Shown here one piece after another: positions 1 through 62,545 of a DNA stretch of 64,000 bases. Numbering within the stretch: the first letter of the stretch is position 1; the number at the start of each line of letters is the position of its first letter. The notes under the pieces are model-generated. The model saw only the letters and a list, made by a program, of their open reading frames with translations. It did not search any database and had not been told where the DNA came from. This DNA comes from Ruminococcaceae bacterium UBA1425 (GTDB taxonomy: Bacteria > Bacillota > Clostridia > Oscillospirales > Acutalibacteraceae): positions 34,245 to 98,244 of the forward strand of contig DCUB01000012.1 in the NCBI GenBank assembly GCA_002329365.1, written 5' to 3'. Position numbers and translations under genes: made by a program.

Positions 1-22
1 GGTCTTGACCGTTCCGCAAGGT
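1..22. repeat. Family A REP-like unit, truncated by the window edge (GGTCTTGACCGTTCCGCAAGG)
   Basis: Identical to the right part of the unit at 44703-44733. Confidence 0.7.
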
Positions 23-82
23 TAGATGTATCTTTCAACGCACGAACACGGCGCGAAAGTCAAAACCGAAAGGATAGTTTTC

Positions 83-1129
83 ATGAGCATTGAAAAAAGC
101 TTTTTCGGCACAACAAAGGACGGCGGGGAAGTATATAATTACGATATAATAAATGCCGGCGGCTCGCGCGCGGGTATCATAACCTACGGTGGCACTTTAT
201 GCTCTCTGCTCGTGCCCGATAAAAACGGAGTGCTGACAGACGTACTGCTCGGCTTTGACGACATGGAGGGGCACGAGGAGCGTTCTGCGTATCAGGGTCA
301 GCTTGTGGGCAGATACGCAAACAGGCTCGTAAACGGCTCCTTTACGGTAAACGGCATAAAAATTGAAGTAACAAAAAACGAAAACGGCGAAACATGCCTT
401 CACGGCGGCGGCGAGCTTTCACACGCAGTGTGGACGGCGGAAATTGCCGGCGAAAACTCCCTGCGGCTTACATATACGGGCGCCGACAATAAAGAGGGCT
501 TCCCCGGCGTGTTCACGGCGGAGGTTTTATACACCTTTACGGACGAAAACGAGATTATTATAGATTACAGGGCGTCCTGCACGGAGGATACCGTTATAAA
601 CCTCACAAACCACGCATATTTTAACCTCGCGGGCTTTGACGGCGGCGACGTGCTTGACCACGAGCTTTCGATAGACGCGGATTACTTCACGCCCACCGAC
701 AAAAAGAGCATACCGACGGGCGAAATAAGGGCTGTCGGCGGCACGGCGTTCGACTTCAGAAACCTTAAGCCCATAGGTCTTGATATAGGCGCCAATGACG
801 AACAGCTTATAAGCTGCAGGGGCTACGACCACAATTTCTGCCTTAACAAAAGACCTGCCGGCGCTCCCGCCGCCCGCGTAAGATGTCCGCGTTCGGGAAT
901 ATCAATGGAGATGTTCACAGACATGCCGGGCGTTCAGCTTTACACGGGCAACTTCCTTGACGGGGAAAAAGGGAAGGGTGGCACACCTGTGAACAAACAC
1001 GCCGGCTTCTGCCTTGAAACACAGTTTTATCCCGACACGCCGAACCACTTAAATTTTCCGCAGTGTACCTTTTTGCGCGGCGAATTATTCGTTTCGCGCA
1101 CGTCATATAAATTTTACTCAGACCGATAA
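83..1129 (+). CDS. galM: Aldose 1-epimerase (galactose mutarotase)
   Basis: ORF 26-1129. The internal ATG at 83 follows AAAGGA. Family-typical N-terminus (FGTTKDGGEVYNY), HGG motif and NHAYFNL motif. Confidence 0.85.
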   Translation: MSIEKSFFGTTKDGGEVYNYDIINAGGSRAGIITYGGTLCSLLVPDKNGVLTDVLLGFDDMEGHEERSAYQGQLVGRYANRLVNGSFTVNGIKIEVTKNENGETCLHGGGELSHAVWTAEIAGENSLRLTYTGADNKEGFPGVFTAEVLYTFTDENEIIIDYRASCTEDTVINLTNHAYFNLAGFDGGDVLDHELSIDADYFTPTDKKSIPTGEIRAVGGTAFDFRNLKPIGLDIGANDEQLISCRGYDHNFCLNKRPAGAPAARVRCPRSGISMEMFTDMPGVQLYTGNFLDGEKGKGGTPVNKHAGFCLETQFYPDTPNHLNFPQCTFLRGELFVSRTSYKFYSDR

Positions 1130-1141
1130 GGAGATGTGTCA

Positions 1142-1864
1142 ATGAAAAAGGCGCTTATATTCAGAGGCGGATGGGACGGTCACGAGCCGCTGCTTGTGTC
1201 CGAAAGATTCGCCGGCATCCTGCGGGGCGAGGGCTTCGATGTCGACATTCACGACGACCAGGATATCTTAGGCAACCTCGATTACCTCATGGGGCTGGAC
1301 CTCATAATCCCCTGCTGGACAGGCGGAGAAATCAACGGCGATTACACGAAAAATGTGGCAAAGGCAGTCGGTGCGGGAGTAGGCATGGCCGGCTGTCACG
1401 GCGGAATGTGCGACGCGTTCCGTAAAGACACCGAATGGCAGTTCATTACGGGAGGTCAGTGGGTAAGCCACCCGGGCGGCGACGGCGTTGAGTACACCGT
1501 CAACGTCATCCGTTCCTCAAGCCCCATTGTAGAGGGAATAGAGGACTTCCTTGTCTGGAGCGAGCAGTATTATCTTCATGTAGATCCCGCCGTAGAGGTG
1601 CTCGCGACAACACGATTTCCTGTCGTGAACTATTACCACATTTCAAACAAGCCGGTTGACATGCCCGTCGTATGGACAAAGTACTGGGGCAACGGGCGCG
1701 TGTTTTACTCGTCGCTCGGTCACCACGATGACGTGTTCGACAAGTCGCCGTCGGCACAAATCATAATGACGCGCGGCATGCTGTGGGCGGCGGAAGGTAA
1801 GGAATACGCCGTTAAAAACGGTCTTACCACCGAGAGATTTGAAAGCAAAGCAAAAATGTATTAA
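1142..1864 (+). CDS. ThuA domain-containing protein (trehalose-utilisation ThuA-like)
   Basis: MKKALIFRGGWDGHEP N-terminus, SLGHH motif and about 240 aa length are typical of the ThuA family. A Gfo/Idh/MocA gene follows. Confidence 0.7.
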   Translation: MKKALIFRGGWDGHEPLLVSERFAGILRGEGFDVDIHDDQDILGNLDYLMGLDLIIPCWTGGEINGDYTKNVAKAVGAGVGMAGCHGGMCDAFRKDTEWQFITGGQWVSHPGGDGVEYTVNVIRSSSPIVEGIEDFLVWSEQYYLHVDPAVEVLATTRFPVVNYYHISNKPVDMPVVWTKYWGNGRVFYSSLGHHDDVFDKSPSAQIIMTRGMLWAAEGKEYAVKNGLTTERFESKAKMY

Positions 1865-1882
1865 TAGAAAGAAGGGCTATAA

Positions 1883-2983
1883 ATGATAAAAATCGGTTTT
1901 GTAGGCGTCGGAGACATAAGCGGAATTTACCTCAAAAACATCACGGGGCTTTTCGGCGAGATTGAGATTGCGGGCATCTGCGACCTTGTCCGCGAAAAGG
2001 CGGAGCGCGCGGCGGAAAAGTACAACATCAAAAAAATCTACAAGGATATGTACGAGCTTTTTGCAGACCCCGAGGTTGATATTGTCCTCAATATCACAAG
2101 GCCTTACGAGCATTTCGGCGTTTCCAAGGCGGCTCTTGAGGCGGGAAAAAACGTATATTCCGAAAAGCCTCTGGCGGCGACGCTTGAGGAGGGCAGAATA
2201 CTTAAAAAGCTTGCCGACGAAAAGGGGCTTTTCCTCGGCGGAGCGCCCGACACCTTCCTCGGCGCGGGCATACAGACCTGCCGCAGGCTGATTGACGACG
2301 GCTATATCGGAACTCCCGTCGGCGCGGCGGCGTTTATGATTTGCCGCGGACACGAAAGCTGGCATCCCGACCCCGAGTTTTATTACAAGCACGGCGGCGG
2401 GCCGATGTTCGACATGGGACCGTATTATCTTACAGCTCTCGTCAACCTCCTGGGGCCCGTCGAGTCCGTAATGGGCATGTCAAAGATATCCTACCCCGAA
2501 AGAATGATTACGAGCGAGCGGCTTAACGGCACGATTATAAAGGTTGACGTACCCACATATATTACGGGCATACTTAAGTTCAGGAGCGGCGCTGTCGGCA
2601 CCATATTCACAACCTTCGACGTCAAGTACACCGAAGGAGCGCGCCTTGAGGTTTACGGCTCAAAAGGAACGCTGAACGTTCCCGACCCGAACGGCTTCGG
2701 CGGCCCCGTCAAGCTCCTGCGCATGGAGGAAAAGGAATACAGGGATATGCCGCTTTGCTTCAGCTACAGCGAAAACAGCCGCGCCCTCGGCCTTGCCGAC
2801 ATGGCAAAGGCCATCGAGACGGGCAGGCGTTTCCGCGCAAACAGCCGCCAGACGCTTCATGTGCTTGAAATCATGAGCGCCATAGATACTTCGTCGAAGG
2901 AAGGCAGGCTTGTTAAAATCGAGTCCGATTACGAGCCTGAGGCGCCGATGGCAAACCCCGACAGAATAGGATACCTTGATTAA
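1883..2983 (+). CDS. Gfo/Idh/MocA family oxidoreductase (ThuB-like partner)
   Basis: N-terminal Rossmann motif IGFVGVGDISG, an EKP motif, and 366 aa length. Confidence 0.85.
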   Translation: MIKIGFVGVGDISGIYLKNITGLFGEIEIAGICDLVREKAERAAEKYNIKKIYKDMYELFADPEVDIVLNITRPYEHFGVSKAALEAGKNVYSEKPLAATLEEGRILKKLADEKGLFLGGAPDTFLGAGIQTCRRLIDDGYIGTPVGAAAFMICRGHESWHPDPEFYYKHGGGPMFDMGPYYLTALVNLLGPVESVMGMSKISYPERMITSERLNGTIIKVDVPTYITGILKFRSGAVGTIFTTFDVKYTEGARLEVYGSKGTLNVPDPNGFGGPVKLLRMEEKEYRDMPLCFSYSENSRALGLADMAKAIETGRRFRANSRQTLHVLEIMSAIDTSSKEGRLVKIESDYEPEAPMANPDRIGYLD

Positions 2984-3033
2984 AAGCCGCCGCAAAATTA
3001 TCATTTTCGTGGCTGCATCAACGATGTATATTT

Positions 3034-3172
3034 CGGAACGGTCAAGACCGTTCCCTACAAATGTTTTTTCCTATCTTCGGAAGACAACGTGTAGGGATTT
3101 GTTTTGACCGTTCTCGGTTTTGATGACGAATATCATTTTTTGCGCAGGAAACGGTCCTGACCGTTCCGCAAA
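3034..3172. repeat. Family A REP-like cluster: short unit 3034-3058, right arm of the long form 3075-3116, unit 3144-3172
   Basis: CGGAACGGTCAAGACCGTTCCCTAC; CTTCGGAAGACAACGTGTAGGGATTTGTTTTGACCGTTC (approximately the reverse complement of 37925-37960); GCAGGAAACGGTCCTGACCGTTCCGCAA. Confidence 0.8.
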
Positions 3173-3250
3173 AGAGTTTTTTAAACAAACCTTGTTTTGT
3201 TTCGAGGAATTGTCCGAGGTTAATGTCGGGGTAATTGTTCACTCTTTGTA

Positions 3251-3280
3251 TTGACAAGCCGCATATCAAAAAGGTATTAT
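3251..3280 (+). promoter_or_regulatory. Sigma-A type promoter (TTGACA, 18 nt spacer, TATTAT)
   Basis: Near-consensus hexamers about 95 nt upstream of the ABC ATPase start. Confidence 0.55.
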
Positions 3281-3375
3281 TAACATGAGTATTTTTGTGT
3301 AATCGCGGGAATACAACGCATAACATGTTAGTTTCTGATGCAAAATGCTGCGGCGCTGAGGGAGGCATTTTAATA

Positions 3376-4086
3376 ATGACGCTCATAAGGTGCAATAACG
3401 CGTCCTTCGGCTACGAGGGCAATATTGTTCTTTCAAACGTCAGCTTTTATACCGATTCCGGCGACTACCTTTGCATAGTCGGCGAAAACGGTTCGGGCAA
3501 AAGCACCCTTATTAAGGGGCTTCTCGGCCTGAAATCACCCGTTTCCGGCACTGTCGAAACGTGCGGCGGGCTAAAGCCCGACGAAATAGGATATCTCCCC
3601 CAGCAGACGACGGCGCAAAAGAATTTCCCCGCAAGCGTCTATGAGGTTGTTCTTTCGGGAAGGCTCAACAGCATAAAAAGGCGCCCTTTTTACTCAAAGG
3701 AGGACAAGCGTTCGGCGCTCAACATTCTTGAAACAATGGGTATGGCGGACTACAAGAACCATTGCTACCACGAGCTTTCCGGCGGGCAGCAGCAGCGCGT
3801 GCTGCTCGCGCGCGCTCTGTGCGCCACAAAAAAGCTTCTGCTGCTCGACGAGCCTGTCGCAGGGCTTGACCCGCCGGCTACTATGGAGCTTTACAGGCTT
3901 GTCCGGAGAATTAACGGTGAGCTCGGCATAACAGTCATCATGGTGTCGCACGATATACACGCCGCCGTAAAATACGCAAGCCACATACTACATCTCGGCA
4001 ACGAGCAGCTTTTCTTCGGAACGGCCGGGGAATATATAAAAAGCGAGTACGGCAGACAGTTTTTGGGAGGCACGGATATTGATTAG
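3376..4086 (+). CDS. ABC transporter ATP-binding protein (metal/ZnuC-like), with no adjacent permease or binding protein
   Basis: Walker A GENGSGKST, signature LSGGQQQR, Walker B LLLLDEP. RBS GAGGGAGG lies upstream of the ATG at 3376. Confidence 0.85.
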   Translation: MTLIRCNNASFGYEGNIVLSNVSFYTDSGDYLCIVGENGSGKSTLIKGLLGLKSPVSGTVETCGGLKPDEIGYLPQQTTAQKNFPASVYEVVLSGRLNSIKRRPFYSKEDKRSALNILETMGMADYKNHCYHELSGGQQQRVLLARALCATKKLLLLDEPVAGLDPPATMELYRLVRRINGELGITVIMVSHDIHAAVKYASHILHLGNEQLFFGTAGEYIKSEYGRQFLGGTDID

Positions 4087-5371
4087 TCATATGGGCGCAG
4101 CGTCAAACCAGCCGACGTGGCTTAAGCTTGACAACGCGGGAAAGATATTCCCGGGGCAGAACACGTCAAAGTGGTCAAACATTTTCAGGGTTACGGTCGT
4201 TCTGAAGGACGCCGTCGACCCCGATATACTTTCGCAGGCTGTTCGCGACACGCTGCCGCGCTTTCCGTGCTTCGACGTCCGCATACGGCGGGGGTTTTTC
4301 TGGTATTATTTCGAGAAAAACCCGAAGCCAGCGCCGCCCGTAATGCCCGACATAAAAAACCCCTGCTATCGTGTGAATTTCCGTGAAAACGACGGTTTTC
4401 TGTTCAGGGTCTACTACCGCGAGAACAGAATCTCGATAGATTTCTACCACGCGCTTTCCGACGCCTACGGCGCTTCCCGGCTGCTCTCCACCATAACCGC
4501 GCAATACCTGCGGCTTTGCGGCCACGATATCCCGCCGGGCGAGAGCGTGCTTTCGCTTGAAGAACCGGCTTCCCCCGAAGAGCTTGAGGACTCCTACCGC
4601 AAATACGCAAGCTCAAAGGCAAAGAGCAAACGCGGCGGAAAACTCGTCTACCACGCGAAGGGCACGCGTATGCCTCCGCATACGATGAACATCACAACAG
4701 GCTTTATGCCTGTCGACAAGGTGAAGGCAAAGGCGTTTGAGTATAACGTCACCGTAACCGAGCTTCTTGCCGCCGTGCTTCTGTTCATCCACTACGAAAA
4801 GCAGAAAAAGGAGCGCCGGAGGCAAAGGCCGCTCGTAATCCAGATACCCGTCAATCTAAGGGGCGTATTCCCCTCAAAAACACTGCGGAACTTTTCACTG
4901 TGGTACTCCGTCTGCATTGACCCGAACATGGGTGAGTACACCTTCGAGGACATTTTAAGGCACGTTTCCCTGTCGCTGCGCCTTACGAATAACGAAAAAA
5001 CGCTGAACGCGATGATAACCGCAAACATGAAGGTGGAAAGCAACCCGGCAATGAGGTTCCTGCCGCTGTTCGTGAAGGATCCCGCAATTGGGCTTACTTT
5101 TATGATAACGCGCGAACTGACGTCCACCACCGTCGTGTCAAACCTCGGTGTTATGAAGGTGCCGGCGGAAATGGAGCAGTTTGTGGACAAGTTTATTCTT
5201 GTAAACTGCCCCGGCGTCAGAAACGGCGGGCGCTGCGCAGCCGTAAGCTTTAAAAACACCCTCGCGCTTACGTTTTCAAATATTTTCGTCGAGAGCTGTC
5301 TTGAGCGCGATTTTTTCAGGATGTTCGTGAAAATGGGCATACCCGTAAAAATAGAAAGCAACAGGGAATAA
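4079..5371 (+). CDS. HxxxD acyltransferase (annotated-as alcohol acetyltransferase / condensation-domain-like family)
   Basis: WLKLDNAGKIFP N-terminal motif. HALSD (HxxxD) at nt 4448-4462. The TTG start is 8 nt after GGAGG and overlaps the ABC ATPase stop. Paralog at 53134-54447. Confidence 0.7.
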   Translation: MISHMGAASNQPTWLKLDNAGKIFPGQNTSKWSNIFRVTVVLKDAVDPDILSQAVRDTLPRFPCFDVRIRRGFFWYYFEKNPKPAPPVMPDIKNPCYRVNFRENDGFLFRVYYRENRISIDFYHALSDAYGASRLLSTITAQYLRLCGHDIPPGESVLSLEEPASPEELEDSYRKYASSKAKSKRGGKLVYHAKGTRMPPHTMNITTGFMPVDKVKAKAFEYNVTVTELLAAVLLFIHYEKQKKERRRQRPLVIQIPVNLRGVFPSKTLRNFSLWYSVCIDPNMGEYTFEDILRHVSLSLRLTNNEKTLNAMITANMKVESNPAMRFLPLFVKDPAIGLTFMITRELTSTTVVSNLGVMKVPAEMEQFVDKFILVNCPGVRNGGRCAAVSFKNTLALTFSNIFVESCLERDFFRMFVKMGIPVKIESNRE

Positions 5372-5399
5372 AGCGGACAAAAAACGGGAGGTGAAGCGC

Positions 5400-5600
5400 A
5401 TGATATTTAAGTCCAAGGAAGAAGGCAAATTTGCCTTTAAAAAATATTACTCCCGCGGGCAGAGGACGTACGCCGAGCGTATGCGCAGGCGTCTTATCGT
5501 GCGCCGTCTTCTCATGTCTTTTTTGTTCATTCTTGTTTTTTTGCTCGGCTTTTTCATCATGTCGCTTCTGCTCGACATATCTTCGCTGCCGCCTTCATAA
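5400..5600 (+). CDS. Small basic single-pass membrane protein (66 aa)
   Basis: GGGAGG RBS 8 nt before the ATG at 5400. Lys/Arg-rich N-terminus followed by one hydrophobic helix (LLMSFLFILVFLLGFFIMSLLL). Confidence 0.5.
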   Translation: MIFKSKEEGKFAFKKYYSRGQRTYAERMRRRLIVRRLLMSFLFILVFLLGFFIMSLLLDISSLPPS

Positions 5601-5636
5601 AACGGCGCCGGCAACAAGGCAAACCCCGGAGGAAAC

Positions 5637-7505
5637 ATGCATTATATACCTTTTAATTCAAGAAAATCATATCATAAAACGCCCTTCGGAGCCGTCGGCT
5701 CCGGGGATGACGTAACGCTCAGGGTGATACTGCCCCGTGAATTTCAGTGCAGGGCAGTCTGGCTCGTCGTTCACCGCGACGACAGGCGCGATTGGAGCTA
5801 TTTCCCCTTTTCATGGGAATGCATGGAGGGCTGCGGCGAGGAATGGTGGCGGATAACGTACACGCCCGACTCGCCCGGTCTTTACTGGTATCACTTTGAA
5901 TACGACACCGACTGGGGGCGCGTGCGCATAAACTGCGCAGGCGGCGGCATCGGCCGGATAAACGGCGAAAACGCGGACTGGCAGCTTACGGTTTACGACA
6001 AAAAAACCAAGTCCCCTGTTTGGCTGAAGGGCGGCGTGATATATCAGATTTTCCCCGACCGCTTTTTTTCCTCCGGCGAGCCTAAAAAAAACGTGCCTTC
6101 TGACAGGATAATCCGCTCCGACTGGGGCGGCGAGCCGATGTGGGAGCCTGACGGCAGGGGCAGGATATCAAAATACGACTATTTCGGCGGCGACCTCAAA
6201 GGAATAGAGCAAAAGCTCCCCTACCTTCAGTCGCTCGGCATCACATGTATTTATCTGAACCCGATTTTCGAGGCGCACTCAAACCACCGCTACGACGTCG
6301 CCGATTACATGAAAATCGACCCGCTGCTCGGCACCGAGGAGGATTTTAAAGATCTTTGCGCCGCCGCGCGCGACCGCGGCATACGAATCGTTCTCGACGG
6401 CGTTTTCAGCCACACCGGCGCCGACAGCGTTTACTTCAACAAGCGCGGCAGGTACGGCTCGGGCGGGGCTTACAACTCAAAAAAGTCCGAATATTACAGT
6501 TGGTACAAGTTCCGCAGATGGCCCGACGATTATGTAAGCTGGTGGGACATTGACATTCTGCCCGAGGTCAACGAGGAGGACGAAAGCTATCTCGATTTTA
6601 TCGCGGGCAGAGGCGGCGTTCTCGAAAAGTGGATGGACGCGGGAGCATCGGGCTTTAGAATTGACGTCGCCGACGAGCTTCCGGACAAGCTGCTCGACCG
6701 CGTGTATGAAACTGTCAAACGAAAAAACCTCGACGCGTATATTGTCGGCGAGGTCTGGGAGGACGCGTCGAACAAATACAGCTACGGCAAACGCCGCCGA
6801 TATCTTTTAGGCGGACAGATGGACTCCGTTATGAACTATCCGTTTGCCGACGCTGTTCTGAGCTTTGTCAAAACAGGATGCGCCGAAGTTTTTATGGATA
6901 AGATAATTACCGTGCTCGAAAATTACCCGCGCGAGGTTGTGGACACGCTTATGAATCACATAGGCACACACGACACGGTAAGGGCTGTTACACTTCTTGC
7001 AAAAAGCGAAAAAGCGGAACGTTCTCCCCAAAAAAGAAGCCCCGAAAGGCTGACGATAGAGCAGCTCGAAAAGGGCATAGCGCTTTTGAAGGCCGCCAGC
7101 ACTCTGCAGTTTACGCTGCCCGGCGTGCCGTCAGTTTACTACGGCGACGAGGCGGGGCTGGACGGCGGCGCCGACCCGTACAACAGGCGCTGCTACCCGT
7201 GGGACCATGAAGACGGCGGGCTGCTGCGCCATTATACGGAGCTTTCGCGTATACGGCGCGAACACCCCTGCTTTATCGACGGAGAGTTTGTACCCATTTC
7301 CGCCGCATTGGGCTGTGTCGCGTACGCGAGGATAAAGGACGGCGGCGGCGTAATAGTAATAGCAAACATGAACTGCCACGAAATTGAATATTATCTGCCG
7401 CCCGAGTGGCACGGAGCGCGTCTGCTGCTCGGCGGAACCGGATGCGACGGCTCCACGGTTAAGCTCGGCGCGGCCGCAGCCGCTGTTTTAGACGTTAGAT
7501 GTTAG
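5637..7505 (+). CDS. Glycoside hydrolase family 13 protein (neopullulanase/cyclomaltodextrinase-like, cytoplasmic)
   Basis: GH13 conserved regions DGVFSHTG, GFRIDVADE, EVWED and NHIGTHDT. No signal peptide. Confidence 0.85.
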   Translation: MHYIPFNSRKSYHKTPFGAVGSGDDVTLRVILPREFQCRAVWLVVHRDDRRDWSYFPFSWECMEGCGEEWWRITYTPDSPGLYWYHFEYDTDWGRVRINCAGGGIGRINGENADWQLTVYDKKTKSPVWLKGGVIYQIFPDRFFSSGEPKKNVPSDRIIRSDWGGEPMWEPDGRGRISKYDYFGGDLKGIEQKLPYLQSLGITCIYLNPIFEAHSNHRYDVADYMKIDPLLGTEEDFKDLCAAARDRGIRIVLDGVFSHTGADSVYFNKRGRYGSGGAYNSKKSEYYSWYKFRRWPDDYVSWWDIDILPEVNEEDESYLDFIAGRGGVLEKWMDAGASGFRIDVADELPDKLLDRVYETVKRKNLDAYIVGEVWEDASNKYSYGKRRRYLLGGQMDSVMNYPFADAVLSFVKTGCAEVFMDKIITVLENYPREVVDTLMNHIGTHDTVRAVTLLAKSEKAERSPQKRSPERLTIEQLEKGIALLKAASTLQFTLPGVPSVYYGDEAGLDGGADPYNRRCYPWDHEDGGLLRHYTELSRIRREHPCFIDGEFVPISAALGCVAYARIKDGGGVIVIANMNCHEIEYYLPPEWHGARLLLGGTGCDGSTVKLGAAAAAVLDVRC

Positions 7506-7528
7506 ACGTTAGACGTTAAACGTTCAAG
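7487..7528. repeat. Heptanucleotide tandem repeat (TTAGACG-like, 6 units) spanning the GH13 stop codon
   Basis: ttagacg ttagatg ttagacg ttagacg ttaaacg ttcaagg, read directly. Confidence 0.85.
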
Positions 7529-7542
7529 GTTTGTCTGTAATA

Positions 7543-7704
7543 CGCGGAACGGTCAGGCCCGTTCCCTAAGTGCTTAAACTTTATGAGTGAACCACACAGA
7601 CTGCGGCGTGTTTTACTCGGAACGCATAAATGCGTTCTCTACGAACATTCTCAATATTTGCCGTCCGGAAAGCAGGGAACGGATTCATCCGTTCCGTGAA
7701 AAGT
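7543..7704. repeat. Family A REP-like cluster (units 7543-7570, 7618-7642, 7672-7700), including the mosaic copy 7601-7704
   Basis: CGCGGAACGGTCAGGCCCGTTCCCTAAG; CGGAACGCATAAATGCGTTCTCTAC; GCAGGGAACGGATTCATCCGTTCCGTGAA. Confidence 0.85.
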
Positions 7705-8678: not shown

Positions 8679-8689
8679 CGGAGGAAAAA

Positions 8690-10510: not shown

Positions 10511-10590
10511 CGTAGGGGCGACCGCAAGTGTCGCCCGACGTCCCACATGCAAAACAAACCATGGGCGACCGCAAGGGTCGCCCCTACAAC
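10511..10590. repeat. Inverted pair of GTAGGGGCGAC-type hairpin units (subfamily of family A)
   Basis: CGTAGGGGCGACCGCAAGTGTCGCCCGACG (10511-10540) and ATGGGCGACCGCAAGGGTCGCCCCTACAAC (10561-10590). Confidence 0.85.
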
Positions 10591-10736: not shown

Positions 10737-11582
10737 ATGTATAATTTTCCTATTGGCGTAATAGTCGACAGCTTTCAGGTCGAGATACCCGAGGCTGTAA
10801 AAAAGGCCGCTTCAATAGGAGCGCAGGGAATTCAGGTTTACTCAACATACGGTGATATGGCGCCCGAAAACCTCACCGGCTCAAAGAGGAGCGAGTTTTT
10901 AAAGCTTGTCAAGGACAACGGGCTTGTGATTTCCGCTCTCTGCGGAGACCTCGGCGGAGGCGGCTTCACGCACCCCGAAAAGAACCCGGAAAAAATCGAG
11001 CGTTCAAAGCGCATACTCGACCTCGCTCTTGAGCTTGAAACAAACGTGGTCACCACCCATATCGGCGTAGTGCCGTCAGACAGCGGCGCAGAACGGTACA
11101 AGATAATGCAGGAGGCGTGCGCCGAGCTTGCCGGATACGCCGATTCAATAGGCGCGCATTTCGCAATCGAAACAGGTCCCGAAACGTCGCTTGTGTTAAA
11201 GGAATTCCTCGACAGCCTCAACTCGACAGGCGTCGCCGTAAACCTCGACCCCGCAAACCTTGTAATGGTAACGGGCGACGACCCCGCAAAAGCTGTGTTT
11301 AACCTTAAGGATTATATAGTCCACACTCACGCGAAGGACGGCAGGCAGCTGTTCTACAAGGACCCTGAAATAGTTTACGGCATGGTCAAAAGCCACATCG
11401 TGACGGGTCCCTCCTTTGAGGAGGTGCCGCTGGGCGAAGGCTCCGTCAACTGGGACGAATACTTAAAGGCACTGAACGAAATCGGCTACAAGGGCTTCCT
11501 TACCATAGAGCGCGAAGTCGGCGACGACCCCGAGGCGGACATAAGAAAAGCAGTTGTCTTTCTTAAAGAAAAAATGTCATGA
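10737..11582 (+). CDS. Sugar phosphate isomerase/epimerase (xylose isomerase-like TIM barrel)
   Basis: AGGAGG RBS. About 280 aa with AP_endonuc_2-like pattern (HIG..., [23 protein letters not shown]). Confidence 0.8.
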
Positions 11583-12988
11583 TGCAATTTGAAACGGAAG
11601 AAGAAAGTAAGCAGAATCGAAATCAAATAAAAAGGCAAAGCCGTCCGCGGCCGCCCGCCCCGTCAAGCGGGCAGCTTTTAAGGACTTATTATGTTATGTT
11701 CGCGGTATATGCCGCGGCATTCCTTGCTGTTGCCGTCATAACACGCGGAGAGTCGGTCAGAAACGTGCTGTTCTATAACGCGATAAGCGGTGAAGACGAC
11801 TATTTCATGGACTATTTCAACTCCATACGCAACTCCATATTTGAGTTTTCATATAATATCGGAGTCATCTATCCTCCGCTTGTCAACCTGTTTTATTTCT
11901 TTCTTTCAAGGCTGCTTCCCGCAGGCACAACCGACAACATAGATTTTCCGGGCAGATACATTGTGCGGAACGGTCAGCTACCTCTATTGAGCTACGTTCT
12001 TTTTACGGTAGCCGTCGTGCTTTTCACCGTAAAGGTGATTGAAAAATATGTCGCGCGCTCAAGTCTTCCTCGTTCAAAGGCGCTGCTCGCCTACACCATA
12101 GTGTTTTCCTACCCGTCCGTTTACTGCATAGAGCGCGGAAATATAACGATGCTCGCCGCCGTGCTGACGCTCGTTTTCGTTATGTACCGCGATTCCGAAA
12201 AGCGCTATCTGCGCGAGCTTTCCTTTATAGCCCTGGCGGTTGCCGCTTCCATAAAAATATATCCTGCCGTTTTCGGCCTGCTTTTGATATTCGACAAAAA
12301 ATATAAAGACGCCGCACGGCTTGCCGTGTACGGCGCGGTGCTGTTTATTGTTCCCTTTTTCTTTTACGACGGATTTACAAGCATATACCAGTTCGTCAAG
12401 AAAATTCTCGATTTTTCGGACAAAAAAGCCGTTTTTTTCGGAGTGGGGCAGGTGTCGGTCAAAAATATCGCCGCGCTGTTAGGGTTGGTTTTCGATTTTA
12501 CCGGGGACACTGTCCGCCGAGTAGGCGGCACTCTGTTCCCTCTCACGCAGTTTCTGGCTCTCTTTGCCGCCGCAACCGTGCCGTTAAAGTGGCAGAAGGC
12601 CGCCGCTTTAACATATTTCATGATAAACTTTGCCGCCGTTTCACAGGCATATTCCGTGCTGTTCCTCGTTGTGCCTTTTTTGATGCTTTTGTCCGGCGGG
12701 GAGCCTCTGCGAAGAATCGACCGGGTTTATCTTGTTGTTTTTGCTTTGTTTTTTGTCCCCCTGCCGCCGTTTAGCTCGCTTTCCGACCTTTTCGGCGTCG
12801 GAGGGCTCGGCGGGCTGATAACTTATCAGAACCGCGAGGTGTTTAAAAACATCTTCACCCAGCCGAACCAATATCTTTCAATGCTCCTTATGCAGCTGCT
12901 TTTGCTGCTGCTCACAGTCGAGGGAGTCTCCAAAACTATAAAGACACTCAAAAAAAGGGATTCAGCGCCGGTTATTGTCAATATATAA
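11579..12988 (+). CDS. Polytopic integral membrane protein, possibly a GT-C-type glycosyltransferase (DUF2029/GT87-like)
   Basis: About 10-12 hydrophobic helices, YPPL and KIYPA motifs, ATGA overlap with the upstream gene. The family assignment is tentative. Confidence 0.4.
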
Positions 12989-16096: not shown

Positions 16097-16136
16097 TGTT
16101 GTCATCCTGAGGCGCGAAGCGCTGAAGGATCTTTCC
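16097..16136. repeat. Family B repeat unit (TGTTGTCATCCTGAGGCGCGAAGCGCTGAAGGATCTTTCC)
   Basis: Shares GTCATCCTGAGG...GAAGGATCTT with 34597-34635 and 58701-58770. Confidence 0.8.
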
Positions 16137-33958: not shown

Positions 33959-34279
33959 TTACGTCACGCCTTTCTTTAGTTGGCTTCGTTTTGAAGCCGT
34001 ATGTAGTTTTGGCGGGCTTCCTTCAACTTGCTGCAACCGAGCCGGGTGTTTCGGCGCTTACCGATATAAAAACCGGAAAACAATATGTATTTTCCGGGTC
34101 AACGGCCAAGTTGAAAGCACAATCCTGATTTTTCCGGCGCAAGGGAAGCGCCGAAAGCAGGGTCTGCATAGATCGCCCGGTTTAAAATCGGACATACTCC
34201 GCGGAAATTTCCCGTCTCGAGGACGGCCACCTCCCGCATCAACGCATATCTAACGGCACGTTCGAAGAACGCACTTAAG

Positions 34280-34443: not shown

Positions 34444-34474
34444 GCGTAGGGAACGGTCTTGAACGTTCCGAAAC
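34444..34474. repeat. Family A REP-like unit (GCGTAGGGAACGGTCTTGAACGTTCCGAAAC)
   Basis: Direct reading. Confidence 0.8.
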
Positions 34475-34654: not shown

Positions 34655-34766
34655 CCTGCAAAACGGACAAGACCGTTCCCTGCTTCAATATTGTAATGTG
34701 TATACCATGAGTTTACACACCTGTTTACCATGTTACTCTTGACACAAGACCGTTCCCTGCTTCAGG
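34655..34766. repeat. Degenerate family A unit plus an exact 21-nt direct repeat (ACAAGACCGTTCCCTGCTTCA at 34667-34687 and 34744-34764)
   Basis: Direct reading. Confidence 0.75.
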
Positions 34767-34798: not shown

Positions 34799-34827
34799 TT
34801 GACAAAAGCTGCGCTACGACATATAAT
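34799..34827 (+). promoter_or_regulatory. Consensus sigma-A promoter (TTGACA, 17 nt spacer, TATAAT) for the ArsR operon
   Basis: Perfect hexamers about 55 nt upstream of the ATG at 34883. Confidence 0.7.
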
Positions 34828-34834
34828 AAAAACA

Positions 34835-34858
34835 ACATGTGAATACATGTTCACATGT
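34835..34858 (+). promoter_or_regulatory. Candidate ArsR/SmtB operator: perfect 9-bp inverted repeat ACATGTGAA-N6-TTCACATGT
   Basis: Lies immediately downstream of the -10 element and upstream of the ArsR gene. Confidence 0.6.
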
Positions 34859-34882
34859 TCACCGCAAAGGAGCTGAAAAAAC

Positions 34883-35221
34883 ATGGCTGAAAAGAGCGGA
34901 AAAAGCGGCAGTCACGCCGTCAGGGCCGTAAGCACCGAGCAGCTTTATGATTTGTCGGAGCTGTACAAGGTGTTCGGCGACAGCACAAGGATTCGCATAT
35001 TATACGCGCTTTTCGAAAAAGAACTCTGCGTCTTTCACCTTTCAATGGAGCTTAACATGGGCAGGAGCGCCGTGTCGCACCAGCTTCGCATACTCCGCTC
35101 GGCGGGGCTTGTACGTCCGCGCCGCTGCGGCAAGGAGGTCTACTATTCGCTTGACGACGAGCATGTGCGCGAGATAATCGGCGCGGGACTTAAGCATATA
35201 AATCATAAGCAGGCGCGGTGA
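34883..35221 (+). CDS. ArsR/SmtB family metalloregulatory transcriptional repressor
   Basis: wHTH pattern LFKVFGDSTRIRILYAL...ELCV..L......S.SAVSHQLR.LR...LV..RR.GK.V.YSL.D.HV. Confidence 0.9.
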   Translation: MAEKSGKSGSHAVRAVSTEQLYDLSELYKVFGDSTRIRILYALFEKELCVFHLSMELNMGRSAVSHQLRILRSAGLVRPRRCGKEVYYSLDDEHVREIIGAGLKHINHKQAR

Positions 35222-37920: not shown

Positions 37921-38004
37921 TTGCGGAACGGTCAAGACAAATCCCTGCACGTTGTTTTCCGAAGCTATGGAAAAATTGCAGGGATTTGTCTTGACCGTTC
38001 CCTA
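37921..38004. repeat. Long form of the family A element: perfect 25-bp inverted repeat (37925-37949 / 37977-38001) with a 27-nt loop
   Basis: GGAACGGTCAAGACAAATCCCTGCA ... TGCAGGGATTTGTCTTGACCGTTCC. Starts 3 nt after the ATPase stop. Confidence 0.9.
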
Positions 38005-42305: not shown

Positions 42306-42379
42306 CATAGGGGCGCACCTGTGTGTGCGCCCATAAACTTTATTATGCCTTGCGGAACGGTCAAGAACGTTCCCTACGC
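42306..42379. repeat. REP-like units: TAGGGGCGCAC-type hairpin (42306-42336) and family A unit (42350-42379)
   Basis: CATAGGGGCGCACCTGTGTGTGCGCCCATAA; TTGCGGAACGGTCAAGAACGTTCCCTACGC. Confidence 0.8.
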
Positions 42380-42430: not shown

Positions 42431-42515
42431 GCGAACGGTCAGGACAAATTCCTGCATGTTGTTTTCAAAGCTTTGAGAAAACCAACATATGCAGGGAACG
42501 ATCCTGACCGTTACG
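42431..42515. repeat. Long form of the family A element (imperfect hairpin with arms of about 40 nt)
   Basis: GCGAACGGTCAGGACAAATTCCTGCATGTTGTTTTCAAAG / CTTTGAGAAAACCAACATATGCAGGGAACGATCCTGACCGTTACG. Related to 37921-38004. Confidence 0.85.
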
Positions 42516-44702: not shown

Positions 44703-44858
44703 TGTAGGGAACGGTCTTGACCGTTCCGCAAGGTTTTATGAAGCTTCGGACACGGCGCGCCGTGTCCCTGCACCCTTTATCACCCAGACCTTAACGTTAC
44801 GATTACGGTATAACCTTTACAATCCCCGGGTCGTCGAGGGCGCCGACACCTACAATTC
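44703..44858. repeat. REP-like cluster: family A unit 44703-44733, GGACACG palindrome 44745-44773, degenerate GTAG hairpin 44829-44858 (minus sense)
   Basis: TGTAGGGAACGGTCTTGACCGTTCCGCAAGG; TTCGGACACGGCGCGCCGTGTCCCTGCAC. Confidence 0.8.
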
Positions 44859-50868: not shown

Positions 50869-51006
50869 CGGTAGGGATTGCATTTATGCGTTCCGAAAAC
50901 GTATCGGAATTACACCGACGCAGGGACACGTCACGCTGTGTCCGAAGCTAAAAAATGCCTTGCAAAACGGTCAGGACGCACAACGGTCAAGACCGTTCCC
51001 TACAAT
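50869..51006. repeat. REP-like cluster (units 50869-50899, 50919-50948, 50960-51006)
   Basis: GGTAGGGATTGCATTTATGCGTTCCGAAAAC; CGCAGGGACACGTCACGCTGTGTCCGAAGC; TTGCAAAACGGTCAGGACGCACAACGGTCAAGACCGTTCCCTACAAT. Confidence 0.85.
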
Positions 51007-51010
51007 ATAT

Positions 51011-56165: not shown

Positions 56166-56247
56166 GCCTTTTTGCTGCTACATTATAAAAATACAAGGAC
56201 TGTATCAAGCTTTGATGATACAGCTCCTATTTTTTATATCGCGGAGG

Positions 56248-56931: not shown

Positions 56932-56960
56932 TTTACACACATCCTTTTTGCCCTCTAAGT

Positions 56961-57470: not shown

Positions 57471-57660
57471 CTCACCCTCAGATTTTACGAATAAAGCATT
57501 GAATTTTATTTTAGCGTGAATTAATAAAATAGTCAATCAAAATTACGGCTTTTATGCCGTATACTGCGTAACATAGTACAAAAAAGCAGAACTTTTTACA
57601 AGAAAACGATATGCCTCTTGCTGTATATTATCTTTATTGATTCAGGGAAGGTAATATTAT

Positions 57661-58677: not shown

Positions 58678-58700
58678 GGGATAGAAGCACCGTTTCCATG

Positions 58701-58848
58701 CTGTCATCCTGAGGAGCAAAGTGACGTCCCCCGGCTGTCATCCTGAGGAGCGAAGTGACGAAGGATCTTTCCTTAAGATTCTTCGCTTCGCTCAGAATGA
58801 CAGGTGTACCTCAGAATGACAGGTGTACCTCAGAATAACAGGTGTACT
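58701..58848. repeat. Family B repeat cluster: two direct copies of CTGTCATCCTGAGGAGCRAAGTGACG, an inverted partner, and three tandem 19-mers (TCAGAATGACAGGTGTACC) at 58792-58848
   Basis: Direct reading. Sits between convergent genes. Confidence 0.85.
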
Positions 58849-58863
58849 CTCGGACGATTTTCC

Positions 58864-60117
58864 TTAATTGTAACGGTCGCGGTATTTCTTCGGTGAAGTG
58901 CCCGTCATTTTTTTAAATACCTTTGTGAAGTAGCTCTGGTCCTCAAAGCCGCACATTCCCGAAATGTCGCAAAGAGGTATAGCAGGGTTTTTCAGCATTT
59001 GCTTTGCCTTTTCGATACGTACGCCGTTCATGTAGGAGGAAAGCGTCTGCCCCGTTTCCGCCTTGAAAATGCCGCTTACGTAAGAGCGGCTTAAATAGAC
59101 ATATTCCGCTATATCGTCAAGCGATATCTTCCTGCCGAAGTTTGACTTTATGTACTCCATAATGCGGTAAACGGTATCGGAATGCCTGACGCTCGAAAAA
59201 TCAAAGGAGTAGTCCGTAAAATGGTGAAGCGCCTCGGTAAGCAGAATATTCAGCTCGTCTATTGAATTTGCCTCTTCCAGTTTGTTCATATATATGGTAT
59301 TATAAAGAAAAACCTCGCGGATGTCCGCGCCCGCGTCTATCGTGGCTCTCGAAAGCAGAACCATAAGCTCAAGCGAACGGCTTTTGATTGCGTGTAAGTC
59401 CCTGTTGCCCGCTCCGTATATGAAGCCGAGCAGCCTGTTTAAAAGCTCGCGCGCTCCCCGCTCGTCCTGCCTGCTCACCATGCCGCGAAGCTCCCTTTCA
59501 AGCTCTATGGGATAGAAAAATCCGCCCTCGCGCTCCTGCCGTTTTGTCGCCTCGTATATTTCGTTTAATATGATTTCCTGCTCGTATACCGGCTTTCCCG
59601 CCCTGCCCGTTATGCCGGCTGCGGAGGTTTCAAGAACAGCAGCAAGGTGATTCATTTCGCCGGCCGGAAAGACGGGCAGCGAGCCTACAAGCTCCGGCTC
59701 CGCGTAGCCGGGCAGGTCAAAAAGCGTGTCCTGCAAATCGCCCATAACTACAGGCCCCGCCAAAAGCGCAAGGTCGGTTTCGGGCACCGTTACCGCCGCG
59801 AACGTCAGCCCCGCGGGGCAGTAGAAGATATATTTCCCGTTCCAGCGCTTCGCCTCGCTGCAGCCGTAAAGGAGTGTCTGCGGAAGACGGCATTCGTTTT
59901 TGCAGGCTCCGCAGTAAAAAAGCCCGGTAGTCGCCGTCGTTATTATTTCGCGGTCAAAGGTGTCCACAAGCGTTACGGGCGTTTTGCAGACGGCCGCGAA
60001 GTGCCCGGCAAATGTCTTACACTGCTCCGTTATGCGCTTTTCCGTAGCAATCCCCCCGTCCGTGCACAGCGTTATACAGGTATTATAACAGTAGTTTTGT
60101 CTGTTGACAATAAACAA
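58864..60117 (-). CDS. AraC family transcriptional regulator with an N-terminal PocR-like sensory domain
   Basis: C-terminal AraC HTH (ISLDDIAEYVYLSRSYVSGIFK...). Cys-rich N-terminal domain (FYCGACKNEC...CSEA...FYCPAGL). The start codon is uncertain. Confidence 0.8.
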   Translation of the reverse strand: MFIVNRQNYCYNTCITLCTDGGIATEKRITEQCKTFAGHFAAVCKTPVTLVDTFDREIITTATTGLFYCGACKNECRLPQTLLYGCSEAKRWNGKYIFYCPAGLTFAAVTVPETDLALLAGPVVMGDLQDTLFDLPGYAEPELVGSLPVFPAGEMNHLAAVLETSAAGITGRAGKPVYEQEIILNEIYEATKRQEREGGFFYPIELERELRGMVSRQDERGARELLNRLLGFIYGAGNRDLHAIKSRSLELMVLLSRATIDAGADIREVFLYNTIYMNKLEEANSIDELNILLTEALHHFTDYSFDFSSVRHSDTVYRIMEYIKSNFGRKISLDDIAEYVYLSRSYVSGIFKAETGQTLSSYMNGVRIEKAKQMLKNPAIPLCDISGMCGFEDQSYFTKVFKKMTGTSPKKYRDRYN

Positions 60118-60135
60118 TAACCGGAGGAAAATAAA

Positions 60136-61113
60136 ATGTCCGAAAGCCCGCTTATAAGTGCGCTTCGTCTTGAATATCCCGAAACAATTCCCGTATGCCT
60201 AAACGTTCTTCCCGCCATGTGGATTCGTCACGGTGAGGAATTTCAGCGGCTCACAGATGAATACCCTCAGTTCTTCGGCGGTCAGAAAAAGGACTTGTCC
60301 GATATTGCAAACCTTGCCCGCGGAAGATACAGGGAGGGTACTCACGTCGACGAGTGGGGCTGCGTCTGGACAAACATGAACGAGGGCATGGACGCCATTG
60401 TGACCGGTCATCCCGTAAAGTCACCCGGGGACGTCTACTCGCTCGAGATACCGGAAAACCGCGACGGAAGCCTGCCGCACGGCTTTATGTATCTTCGTAT
60501 TCTTGACCTTTGCGGCTTTGAAAACGCGATGATGATGTTCGCCGAGGAGGGCGACGAGATTCGTATTCTCATTGACAAGGTTCTGCAATACAACAAATAT
60601 CAGATAGAGGCGGTTATAGACAGCTTCGGCGACATTGCGGGCTTCGGCGACGACCTCGGAATGCAGACGGGGTTAGCAATAGGTGCGGAGCGCTGGCGAA
60701 AATACTTAAAGCCCTGCTACGCCGAGCTTTACGGAATGATTAAAAAAAGGCATCCGAAGCTGCCCATATACATGCACACCGACGGCTGTATTTACGAGAT
60801 AATGCCCGACCTTGTCGAATGCGGCGTAGACATGATAAATCCGCAGTTCCGCGCAAACAGTCTCGATAACCTTGTAAGGGTTTGCCGCAGCGAGCGGACA
60901 ATAGCAATAAACTTAGACCTTGACCGCCAGCTGTTCCCCTTCGCCACGCGCTCGCAGATATTCGACCATGTGGCGGAGTGTGTCGAAAGCCTTTATCTGC
61001 CCGAGGGCGCTTTGGCTCTTAACATCGAGCTTAACTACGACATTCCGCTTGAAAACTGCGCCGCCATATTTGACGCTGTTGAAAAATACCGTCATTATAA
61101 GGTACACATGTAG
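60136..61113 (+). CDS. Uroporphyrinogen decarboxylase (URO-D) family protein
   Basis: 325 aa, URO-D-like C-terminal half (IYMHTDGCIYEIMPDLVECGVDMINPQ). GGAGGA RBS. Confidence 0.65.
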   Translation: MSESPLISALRLEYPETIPVCLNVLPAMWIRHGEEFQRLTDEYPQFFGGQKKDLSDIANLARGRYREGTHVDEWGCVWTNMNEGMDAIVTGHPVKSPGDVYSLEIPENRDGSLPHGFMYLRILDLCGFENAMMMFAEEGDEIRILIDKVLQYNKYQIEAVIDSFGDIAGFGDDLGMQTGLAIGAERWRKYLKPCYAELYGMIKKRHPKLPIYMHTDGCIYEIMPDLVECGVDMINPQFRANSLDNLVRVCRSERTIAINLDLDRQLFPFATRSQIFDHVAECVESLYLPEGALALNIELNYDIPLENCAAIFDAVEKYRHYKVHM

Positions 61114-61225
61114 GCGTTTTTCTTGCATTGTACTGTTCCCGCTATTGACACATTTTTATAAACAGATATAATATATTTAACGTATATTATGAGGCAGATA
61201 AAAATTTTGGCTTTTGAGGTATAAA

Positions 61226-62383
61226 ATGCAAAAGATAACCGACGACATCATTTATATAGGCGTCAACGACCATATCATCGACCTATTTGAAAGTCAGTTC
61301 GTCGTTCCGAACGGAATGGCTTACAACTCCTATGTCGTCCTCGACGAGCAAATTGCCGTTTTCGACACGACCGAGGCAAAGTTTACTGACGAGTGGCTTA
61401 AAAATCTAAGCGAGGCGTTGGGCGGCAGAAAGCCCGGCTACCTTGTTGTTCAGCACATGGAGCCGGACCACTCCTCGAGCATCGCGGCCTTTGCAAAGGA
61501 GTATCCCGAAGCGAAAATTGTCGGCAACTCCAAAACCTTCGGCATGATAACGCAGTTTTTCGGCATCTGTCTTGACGGCAGAAGCGTTGTAATAAAAGAC
61601 GGCGATACACTGTGCACGGGCAGGCATACGTTTACGTTTGTGTTCGCGCCGATGGTTCACTGGCCCGAGGTTTTCGTAACATACGACAGCTATGAAAAAA
61701 CGCTGTTTTCGGCAGACGCGTTCGGCAAGTTCGGTGCTTTAGACACAGACGAGGAATGGGCGTGCGAGGCAAGACGTTATTACTTCGGAATAGTCGGTAA
61801 ATACGGCGCGCAGGTGCAGGCGCTGCTTAAAAAGGCGTCGTGCCTCCCGATAAAGAGAATATGCTCCCTGCATGGTCCCGTACTGTCCGAAGATTTAGGC
61901 TATTATCTTAATCTTTATGATATCTGGTCGTCCTACGGTGTCGAATCCGAGGGAGTAGTCATAGCCTACACCTCCGTTTACGGCAACACAAGAAAAGCAG
62001 TCGAAAAGCTTGCGGGAATGCTCGAAAAAGGCGGCTGCGAAAAGGTAGTCGTAACCGACCTTGCGCGCGACGACATGGCGGAGGCCGTTGAGGACGCGTT
62101 CCGCTACGGCAGGCTTGTTCTGGCGACAACAACATATAATGCCGACATTTTCCCATTCATGCGCACGTTTATCGAGCAACTGACAGAGCGCGGCTATCAG
62201 AACAGAACGATAGCGTTTATCGAAAACGGCTCGTGGGCGCCGACGGCGGCAAGGGTTATGAGAGGTCTGCTTGATAAGTGCAAAAACATAAAATTTGCCG
62301 AAAACGTCGTCACCATAAAATCGGCGCTGAATGCCGAGTCCGAAGAAGCACTTAAGAAGCTCGCGGAGGAGCTGTGCGGATAA
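61226..62383 (+). CDS. fprA: FprA-type flavodiiron protein (metallo-beta-lactamase plus flavodoxin domains)
   Basis: HMEPDHSS di-iron motif and a C-terminal flavodoxin-like domain. Confidence 0.88.
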   Translation: MQKITDDIIYIGVNDHIIDLFESQFVVPNGMAYNSYVVLDEQIAVFDTTEAKFTDEWLKNLSEALGGRKPGYLVVQHMEPDHSSSIAAFAKEYPEAKIVGNSKTFGMITQFFGICLDGRSVVIKDGDTLCTGRHTFTFVFAPMVHWPEVFVTYDSYEKTLFSADAFGKFGALDTDEEWACEARRYYFGIVGKYGAQVQALLKKASCLPIKRICSLHGPVLSEDLGYYLNLYDIWSSYGVESEGVVIAYTSVYGNTRKAVEKLAGMLEKGGCEKVVVTDLARDDMAEAVEDAFRYGRLVLATTTYNADIFPFMRTFIEQLTERGYQNRTIAFIENGSWAPTAARVMRGLLDKCKNIKFAENVVTIKSALNAESEEALKKLAEELCG

Positions 62384-62440
62384 CAAAACGGCGGGAGCAA
62401 ACCCCGCCTCTTATGCTTTATCTTTAGCCGATTCAGTTAA

Positions 62441-62545
62441 ACTTTGGACGGAACGGATGAATCCGTTCCCTACTTCCTGAACGGCAAATATTGAAAAAAA
62501 TTCGTAGGGAACGCATTTATGCGTTCCGCGCAAAACACACCGCAG
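62441..62545. repeat. Family A mosaic (units 62448-62474 and 62501-62536), an inverted copy of 7601-7704
   Basis: The reverse complement aligns by eye with 7601-7704 over about 105 nt with about 14 differences. Confidence 0.85.

Follow-up and report, generated by a model that had tools for sequence, protein, structure and literature searches.

Repetitive extragenic palindromic elements (REPs) are non-autonomous hairpin elements that spread in intergenic DNA and are best known from Escherichia coli and Pseudomonas. To our knowledge, systems of REPs, of inverted REP doublets (REPINs), and of REP-associated tyrosine transposases (RAYTs) have been studied almost only in Proteobacteria. Here, we analyze a 64,000-nucleotide stretch of the genome of Ruminococcaceae bacterium UBA1425, a member of the Clostridia (GCA_002329365.1, contig DCUB01000012.1, positions 34,245 to 98,244; hereafter, the window), whose intergenic gaps hold a dense family of GTAG-tagged palindromic hairpins. 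We suggest that this is, very probably, a REP/REPIN family served by a RAYT of the subclass 2.4 kind that is encoded elsewhere in the genome.

The closest described systems are those of TnpAREP subclass 2.4, which equals Bertels Group 4 (Quentin et al., 2018; PMC6006769). Enzymes of this subclass carry the motifs NH[IFV]H, WQ, and YIxNNP and are abundant in Cyanobacteria and Bacteroidetes and scattered in other phyla; their REPs have a canonical or a double-foot GT[AG]G form, and REPs are also inserted in frame within the tnpAREP genes. The text of the supplements to that paper contains no match to the unit described below or to Clostridia. In the survey of Di Nocera et al. (2013; PMC3733652), the groups with GTAG repeats are Proteobacteria, Cyanobacteria, Chloroflexi, and Planctomycetes-Verrucomicrobia-Chlamydiae (PVC), and Firmicutes and Clostridia are unmentioned. 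An initial annotation of the window, made from its letters and open reading frames (ORFs), knew of no REP/RAYT system in Clostridia. That holds for the repeats, in that our searches brought up no description of a REP/REPIN family in Clostridia or Firmicutes, but not for the enzymes: RAYT homologs in Clostridia are mentioned in passing (PMC5581495), as are Group 1 RAYTs (Bertels et al., 2017).

A Family of GTAG-Tagged Hairpins in the Intergenic Gaps of the Window

Taken over both orientations, the consensus of the unit is G(T/C)AG-GGAACGGTCTTGACCGTTCC-G(C/A)AA. When up to three mismatches are allowed, the window has 24 matches to GTAGGGAACGN8CGTTCC, compared with 0.48 expected from shuffles, and none of 100 shuffles reached 24; units are indeed present at the loci that the initial annotation had listed. 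We built a covariance model (R1) from an alignment of 18 oriented units (A2) and ran it with filters off. R1 recovered 20 strong copies in the window (20.8–45.9 bits), below which all scores (15.8 bits or less) were noise or opposite-strand echoes. Adding a truncated copy, a partial one, and ~4 GTAG hairpins whose stems differ brings the total to ~26; the local density is ~0.3–0.4 units/kb. Among the loci that had been grouped as one family, 10511-10590 and 42306-42338 have another stem type (GTAGGGGCGAC...), the hairpin at 44828-44853 is of yet another type, and the copy at 34737-34764 is only a partial unit. A finder for GTAG plus any hairpin was rejected as noisy (33 matches versus ~12 in Markov controls, many in coding sequence), and an Rfam search of the window returned no family at the units.

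The stem is 8–9 bp long. Across the 8-bp stem, 89.6% of the alignment cells are paired, and both partners change in five of the eight pairs, i.e., in a compensatory manner, as had been claimed; the covariation score is 0.382, compared to 0.146 for shuffles and at most 0.077 for slid partners. The tag reads GTAG in 11 of the 20 units, GCAG in 8, and TTAG in 1, with the AG invariant and GTAG as the consensus. Hence, the variable base is the second one and not the first, as the previously proposed (G/C)TAG would have it. Four stems are self-complementary variants of the same plan: type A (GGAACGGTC/GACCGTTCC), type B (GGAACGCAT/ATGCGTTCC), type C (GGAACGGAT/ATCCGTTCC), and type D (GGACACGG/CCGTGTCC). 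Type E (GGGATTTGTC...GACCGTTCC) has no self-complementarity, and type F is a GTAG hairpin with another stem (GGGGCGAC), found at 10512-10587 and 42306-42335.

A gene map drawn from codon usage leaves ~11% of the window non-coding. All 20 R1 units and three type F units lie in non-coding gaps, nine in number, in line with the claim that every copy is intergenic. Fifteen of these 23 units are between co-directional genes, 6 between convergent genes, and 2 between divergent genes, and the first unit in a gap is often found 3–60 nt past a stop codon. The earlier statement that placed most copies just downstream of a stop codon or in convergent gaps is therefore correct for most of them, the two in a divergent setting being the exception, and "nearly every long gap" is roughly right, as units occur in ~9 of the 12 gaps that are truly non-coding and 150 nt or longer. 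The units are not intrinsic terminators because a T-rich tail (six or more T in the 10 nt after the stem) follows only 2 of the 23 (42432-42455 and 42491-42514); a terminator scan of the window did not pick up the main unit hairpins.

Inverted Doublets Have REPIN/BIME Organization

Units are arranged as six inverted doublets (3035-3114, 7619-7695, 10512-10587, 37925-38001, 42432-42514, and 62450-62527). The tags face inward in five of them and stand at the outer ends in 10512-10587. In the five doublets that were aligned (10512-10587 was not), the spacers are 29–35 nt long and homologous between copies, so the doublet is itself a repeated unit. For example, doublet 7619-7695 is the composite element of 62450-62527 on the opposite strand. 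This organization is the pattern of REPINs and of bacterial interspersed mosaic elements (BIMEs). As single-stranded DNA, five of the six doublets fold into one long hairpin (z from −4.0 to −11.9; Table 1), and the minimum-energy fold of 7619-7695 consists of two separate hairpins. The arms of 37925-38001 are unable to fold alone; therefore, their complementarity is maintained at the level of the doublet. With a GTAG tag, an imperfect palindrome, an extragenic location, and inverted pairs, the family has the REP grammar that was initially ascribed to it.

The Same Unit Is Found within and beside RAYT Genes of Other Genomes

An exact-pattern scan of species-representative genomes returned at least 120 8-kb blocks. 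Among the matches listed, most are metagenome-assembled genomes (MAGs) of Oscillospirales (Oscillospiraceae, Acutalibacteraceae, Ruminococcus, Faecousia, Fimenecus, Gemmiger, and Subdoligranulum), and an identical 24-mer recurs in dozens of Oscillospirales species MAGs. The foot of the unit (GGGAAC...GTTCC) is strongly conserved across species. By tblastn, RAYT-like genes are present in five of the listed blocks (L070, L072, L020, L035, and L031; L numbers denote loci from other genomes or contigs), and RAYT genes that contain or adjoin the unit were found in L070, L072, L020, L137, L131, L134, and L230. Clostridia MAGs that carry the unit do encode RAYTs. The L072 protein scores 84.8 bits on the NCBIfam model NF047646 (REP-associated tyrosine transposase; cut-off 80) and 28.5 bits on Pfam Y1_Tnp (cut-off 23), and its sole PDB match is 4ER8, the E. 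coli TnpArep; a frameshifted copy in L070 reaches 74.7 bits on NF047646.

Four of these genes have two or three in-frame GTAG hairpins (Table 1). Read in frame, the type C unit GGAACGGAT(A/G)AATCCGTTCCCTAC encodes ER(I/M)NPFPT, the type B unit GTAGGGAA(T/C)GCATT(T/C)ATGC(A/G)TTCC encodes VGNAFM(H/R)S, and the type A unit GGAACGGTCAAGACCGTTCCCTAC encodes ERSRPFPT. The arms of the window doublet 62450-62527 are identical to such in-gene hairpins, namely type C of L131 and L134 and type B of L230. At L020 789-1184 (a Chloroflexi MAG) and L137 4956-5285 (a human-gut Clostridia contig), a type A unit is directly 5′ of the RAYT start codon, and the 5′ half of the gene, HuH motif included, lies between this upstream unit and an inverted in-frame one. 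In L070, the 650 nt that follow the RAYT gene contain two units of type A and one that is type D-like.

Several further observations were made at these loci. A symmetric double-foot form, GTAGGGAACGN8CGTTCCCTAC, occurs in distant phyla, among them Poribacteria (L017, L041, L042, L045, L112, and others) and Thermodesulfobacteriota (L028 and L075), and there are RAYT-like ORFs in the Poribacteria blocks L112 and L115. At L050 3465-3660, a RAYT remnant without its 5′ part starts exactly at a double-foot unit (GTAGGGAACGGTCAAGACCGTTCCCTAC), as if it had been truncated at an in-gene hairpin. The L137 RAYT gene sits between dnaE and topA in every contig seen.

In-Gene Hairpins Appear to Be Retained at the Cost of Amino Acid Changes

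Two homolog searches (E ≤ 1e-10) gave 2819 and 2239 matches, and we counted motifs in 239 listed cluster representatives. Nearly all of the 239 have NH[IV]H and WQ, and the Y motif, YIxxNP overall, is mostly YIDTNP, with a minority of YIHNNP or YIDNNP. Of the representatives, 96 have the type A peptide ERSRPFPT, and ~110 have ER(I/M)NPFPT or EG(I/M)NPFPT. A few proteins have the type A unit reversed at the same site (VGNGLDRS), and a few have no unit at all. At one pair of the type B stem, the residue pairs are N/H (98), K/P (10), and N/R (7), and K together with H never occurs; in the gene sequences read (L131, L134, and L230), these residue pairs correspond to T-A, G-C, and C-G base pairs. 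Because residue pairs track base pairs, hairpin pairing appears to be retained at the cost of amino acid changes. At the loci read, type A DNA is identical from Chloroflexi to gut Clostridia, whereas the proteins are only ~41–60% identical. Together, these comparisons suggest that the DNA or RNA hairpin, rather than the peptide, is what is conserved inside the RAYT gene. The spacers of the window doublets resemble the spacer between two in-gene hairpins over 7–8 nt only, and we make no claim of derivation.

The Units Are Absent from a Syntenic Relative

The window carries an S10-Clostridia ribosomal protein leader (34173-34250, minus strand; Rfam RF03136, 44.2 bits) that precedes a long ribosomal protein operon at 19–34 kb, and its polynucleotide phosphorylase (PNPase) shares 85–89% identity with proteins from MAGs named as Clostridiales, Acutalibacteraceae, and Oscillospiraceae, both of which agree with the Clostridia host that had been proposed. 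Exact or 99.9%-identical copies come from gut metagenome assemblies only, including ENA ERZ3460576 NODE_20 (475 kb). Short-read metagenome contigs of the same strain start or stop inside units, and Logan contigs break within the type A unit 3035-3058. Since same-strain contigs end in units, these breaks point to genome-wide repetition.

A relative (GCA_001577815.1) and two metagenome contigs have the gene order of the window, with PNPase 89% identical. The pattern scan found no unit in any of these three syntenic relatives, R1 found none in the two that it scanned, and no unit occurs in 22 kb of GCA_001577815.1. Between amylase and LytR, the relative has a gap of 35 nt, compared with 258 nt and three units in the window; between HPPK and the endonuclease, it has 92 nt without such units, compared with 242 nt and two type F units. 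A genuine terminator between ApbE and PNPase is present in both. R1 had no match in ~430 kb of amylase-ortholog loci from relatives, and when all 80 such loci (655 kb) were scanned with the pattern, there were 3 matches, each with two mismatches and judged spurious, against 16 that this pattern has in the window. The presence/absence comparison proposed in the initial annotation thus separates the window from its syntenic relative and reveals no differences among 99.9%-identical strains. This is not the outcome that the initial annotation had named as refuting (no RAYT or other Y1 transposase in the genome and its relatives, with all units syntenic and static), since Clostridia MAGs with the unit encode RAYTs and the syntenic relative lacks the units. 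Because the units are absent and the gaps short in the syntenic relative, and control loci are without matches, we conclude that the units are insertions that proliferated in this lineage.

Positions of Units and Other Sites

All units of the window are collected in Table 1, together with the RAYT genes of other loci that hold two or three in-frame hairpins.

Table 1. Hairpin units in the window and RAYT genes with in-frame hairpins (window coordinates unless a locus is named)
Position	Strand	Feature	Score, fold, or remark
1..22	+	Type A unit, 3′ part, cut by window start	Full unit GTATGGAACGGTCTTGACCGTTCCGCAAGG at L127 9963-9998 (upstream extension)
3035..3058	-	Type A unit GTAGGGAACGGTCTTGACCGTTCC, left arm of doublet 3035-3114	R1 45.9 bits; doublet fold z = −5.3
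3091..3114	+	Type E unit (GGGATTTGT...), pairs with 3035-3058, not self-complementary	R1 27.8 bits
3144..3167	+	Type A unit, GCAG tag	R1 38.7 bits
7546..7569	-	Type A unit, TTAG tag	R1 35.9 bits; one loop single-nucleotide polymorphism (SNP) between strains
7619..7695	.	B(-)/C(+) inverted doublet, 29-nt spacer	R1 35.9 and 37.1 bits; fold z = −3.6
10512..10587	.	Type F inverted doublet (GTAGGGGCGACC...GGTCGCCC)	Perfect stems; doublet fold z = −4.0
34446..34469	+	Type A unit, divergent gap beside S10 leader	R1 40.2 bits
34660..34683	-	Degenerate type A unit	R1 32.3 bits; alignment A1
34737..34764		Partial unit copy	Near 34660-34683
37925..38001	.	E(-)/E(+) doublet, perfect 25-bp long hairpin, begins 6 nt past stop codon	R1 36.1 and 33 bits; −33.4 kcal/mol, z = −11.9
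42306..42335	+	Type F-like unit ATAGGGGCGCAC...GTGCGCCC	Perfect 8-bp stem
42354..42377	-	Type A unit	R1 38.6 bits
42432..42514	.	E(-)/A(+) doublet between convergent genes	R1 20.8 and 34.2 bits; fold z = −6.1
44704..44771	.	A(+) and D(-) (GGACACGG/CCGTGTCC) pair, tags outward	R1 40.9 and 32.3 bits; fold
44828..44853	-	Further GTAG hairpin type (GTAGGTGTCGGCGCCCTCGACGACCC)	Read from sequence; resembles hairpins in L070 RAYT gene
50871..51003	.	Cluster of B-like(+), D(+), A(-), and partial duplicate of A arm	R1 31.7, 29.6, and 35.2 bits; fold
62450..62527	.	C(-)/B(+) doublet, 30-nt spacer	R1 34.8 and 38.8 bits; fold z = −4.6
L072 124-606	-	RAYT gene with two or three in-frame GTAG hairpins	
L131 216-731		RAYT gene with two or three in-frame GTAG hairpins	
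L134 2725-3237		RAYT gene with two or three in-frame GTAG hairpins	
L230 3728-4264		RAYT gene with two or three in-frame GTAG hairpins	

The window holds other repeats and sites besides. An unrelated palindromic repeat (GTCATCCTGAGGCGCGAAGCGCTGAAGGATC) lies at 16101-16131, between ApbE and PNPase, with one copy in the window and in L001. In strain L147 (20465-20572), a 77-nt insertion adds an inverted and a direct copy of this repeat, and several short-read contigs stop exactly at it. Across the stop codon region of the alpha-amylase gene (3′ end, ~7487-7520), there is a tandem 7-nt repeat (GTTAGAC-like), of which strain L003 has one more unit. A perfect sigma-70-type promoter (TTGACA-17-TATAAT) and, immediately after it, a perfect 10-bp palindrome (AACATGTGAA...TTCACATGTT) occupy 34799-34859, ahead of the gene at 34883; the palindrome looks like an operator. 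Among the three AP_endonuc_2 genes lies a GT87-family glycosyltransferase gene (11579-12988) that the relative L235, syntenic in other respects, does not have. The 10-kb upstream extension (L127) has phage-like genes at 1-6761 (terminase small and large subunits and capsid), without REP units there.

Discussion

We infer that this genome encodes a subclass 2.4-like RAYT and that this RAYT mobilised the copies in the window. By the most likely mechanism, an HUH-Y1 tyrosine transposase (RAYT/TnpAREP) encoded elsewhere would cleave and join single strands and so mobilise REPs in trans, and would recognise the GTAG foot plus the base of the hairpin; the cognate enzymes would most resemble subclass 2.4 (Quentin et al., 2018). 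Transcribed copies just past stop codons may serve as hairpins at mRNA 3′ ends. This is an extension of known biology rather than a new grammar, i.e., a known element in a host group without prior description, because Clostridia RAYT homologs and in-frame subclass 2.4 REPs are already on record.

Several results weigh against this interpretation. A tblastn search with the E. coli and L072 RAYTs found no RAYT in the window, in agreement with the initial annotation, nor in 10 kb upstream or 1.9 kb downstream. Four RAYT clusters (P0117, P0120, P0154, and P0135), picked by hairpin-encoded peptides or by source pattern, were rejected as the RAYT of this genome since all four come from other samples. 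The unit counts cover the window and short flanks alone. Among ~99.9%-identical strains, the units are static except for a few SNPs in the loop, and there is no direct sign of recent movement. Eight of the 20 units have a GCAG tag that is outside the published GT[AG]G consensus, as is the single TTAG tag. Lastly, in several RAYT-bearing relatives, the hairpins are confined to the gene, with few in the intergenic DNA around it, so possession of a RAYT does not by itself predict proliferation. Because several RAYT-bearing genomes have hairpins in the gene only, the dense intergenic population of the window looks like a lineage-specific burst.

Might the units instead be ordinary intrinsic terminators or mRNA 3′-end hairpins that evolved in place and were never mobile? 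Their frequent position 3–60 nt past a stop codon and the two T-rich tails would fit, but the other 21 of 23 units have no such tail, and the terminator scan passed over the main hairpins. Terminators that arose in place also would not explain an identical 24-mer with asymmetric flanks at many loci in many species, up to three units clustered in a gap, or units in a divergent gap, and the syntenic relative retains the real ApbE-PNPase terminator yet has no units. We consider this explanation very improbable. We give equally little credence to the idea that the ~95-nt doublets are miniature inverted-repeat transposable elements (MITEs), that is, deletion derivatives of a DDE-type insertion sequence that moved via terminal inverted repeats with target-site duplication and are unrelated to RAYTs. 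Doublets do have inverted termini and conserved internal spacers and are repeated whole. However, single units are as frequent as doublets, the termini bear the GTAG foot typical of RAYT substrates, and identical hairpins are found in frame within, and directly upstream of, RAYT genes in other genomes.

It is likewise most unlikely that the units are primarily sites for a host DNA- or RNA-binding protein, e.g., a nucleoid-structuring or regulatory one, that spread by recombination and not by a transposase. A foot so strongly conserved across species and units so static among close strains are what such sites might look like, and E. coli REPs do bind host proteins (PMC2817692, review). But a binding role leaves the RAYT link, the doublet structure, and the absence from the syntenic relative unexplained, and it would be compatible with, and secondary to, a REP/RAYT origin.

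A REP/REPIN family served by a 2.4-like RAYT remains our preferred interpretation, and the in-gene hairpins bear on how such a family might arise. They have fixed in-frame positions, an apparent conservation far above that of the protein, and compensatory changes that force coupled replacements, and for these reasons we tentatively raise the idea, which we hold to be possible but on balance doubtful, that in this clade a RAYT gene and its REPs are not separate entities, that in-gene hairpins are functional cis elements rather than passenger insertions, and that bursts like that of the window start there. REPINs could form from in-gene hairpins as their seed or master copy; alternatively, the hairpins could be an autoregulatory site. 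Either way, 2.4-like RAYTs with their own substrate hairpins in frame are a tractable case for the seeding and upkeep of REP populations. More broadly, judging from the window, uncultured and very abundant Oscillospirales of the gut appear to carry a REP/REPIN-RAYT-type system at high local density. Such repeats cause breaks at predictable places in short-read metagenome assemblies, provide many 3′ untranslated regions with conserved hairpins, and are a ready strain- and lineage-level marker.

Comparison with Known REP Systems

Among known systems, the REPs of subclass 2.4 (PMC6006769) are most similar to the family described here. In both, a G/C-rich hairpin base bears a GT[AG]G foot, and there are double-foot versions (here, in other phyla). 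The RAYTs of related MAGs have the NH[IFV]H and WQ motifs of the subclass, and both systems include in-frame hairpins, with ER[IM]NPFPT, VGNAFM[HR]S, and ERSRPFPT here being the translated type C, B, and A units. On the other hand, we find the family in gut Oscillospirales/Clostridia, most Y motifs read YIDTNP instead of YIxNNP, and the proteins are ~155–175 aa long compared to a median of 194 in subclass 2.4. Moreover, in-gene hairpins here occupy fixed positions, with conservation across hundreds of cluster representatives, and are not sporadic insertions.

The REP/BIME-RayT (YafM) system of E. coli and the REPINs of Pseudomonas fluorescens share with this family extragenic, GTAG-tagged imperfect palindromes located downstream of genes, as well as long hairpins formed by inverted pairs across short linkers, and their single-copy HUH-Y1 enzyme is homologous to the Clostridial protein (4ER8). 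They differ in that their RAYTs belong to subclass 2.2 or 2.5 rather than being 2.4-like. The unit here is also shorter, with a 9-bp stem without a bulge and with GCAG tags common, its local density is higher, and a flanking REPtron arrangement is seen in only part of the relatives. Finally, the GTAG families of Di Nocera et al. (PMC3733652) are similar in being stem-loops with GTAG at one end, located mainly between co-directional or convergent genes and sometimes within genes, while the host here is a member of the Clostridia, outside the groups of that survey.

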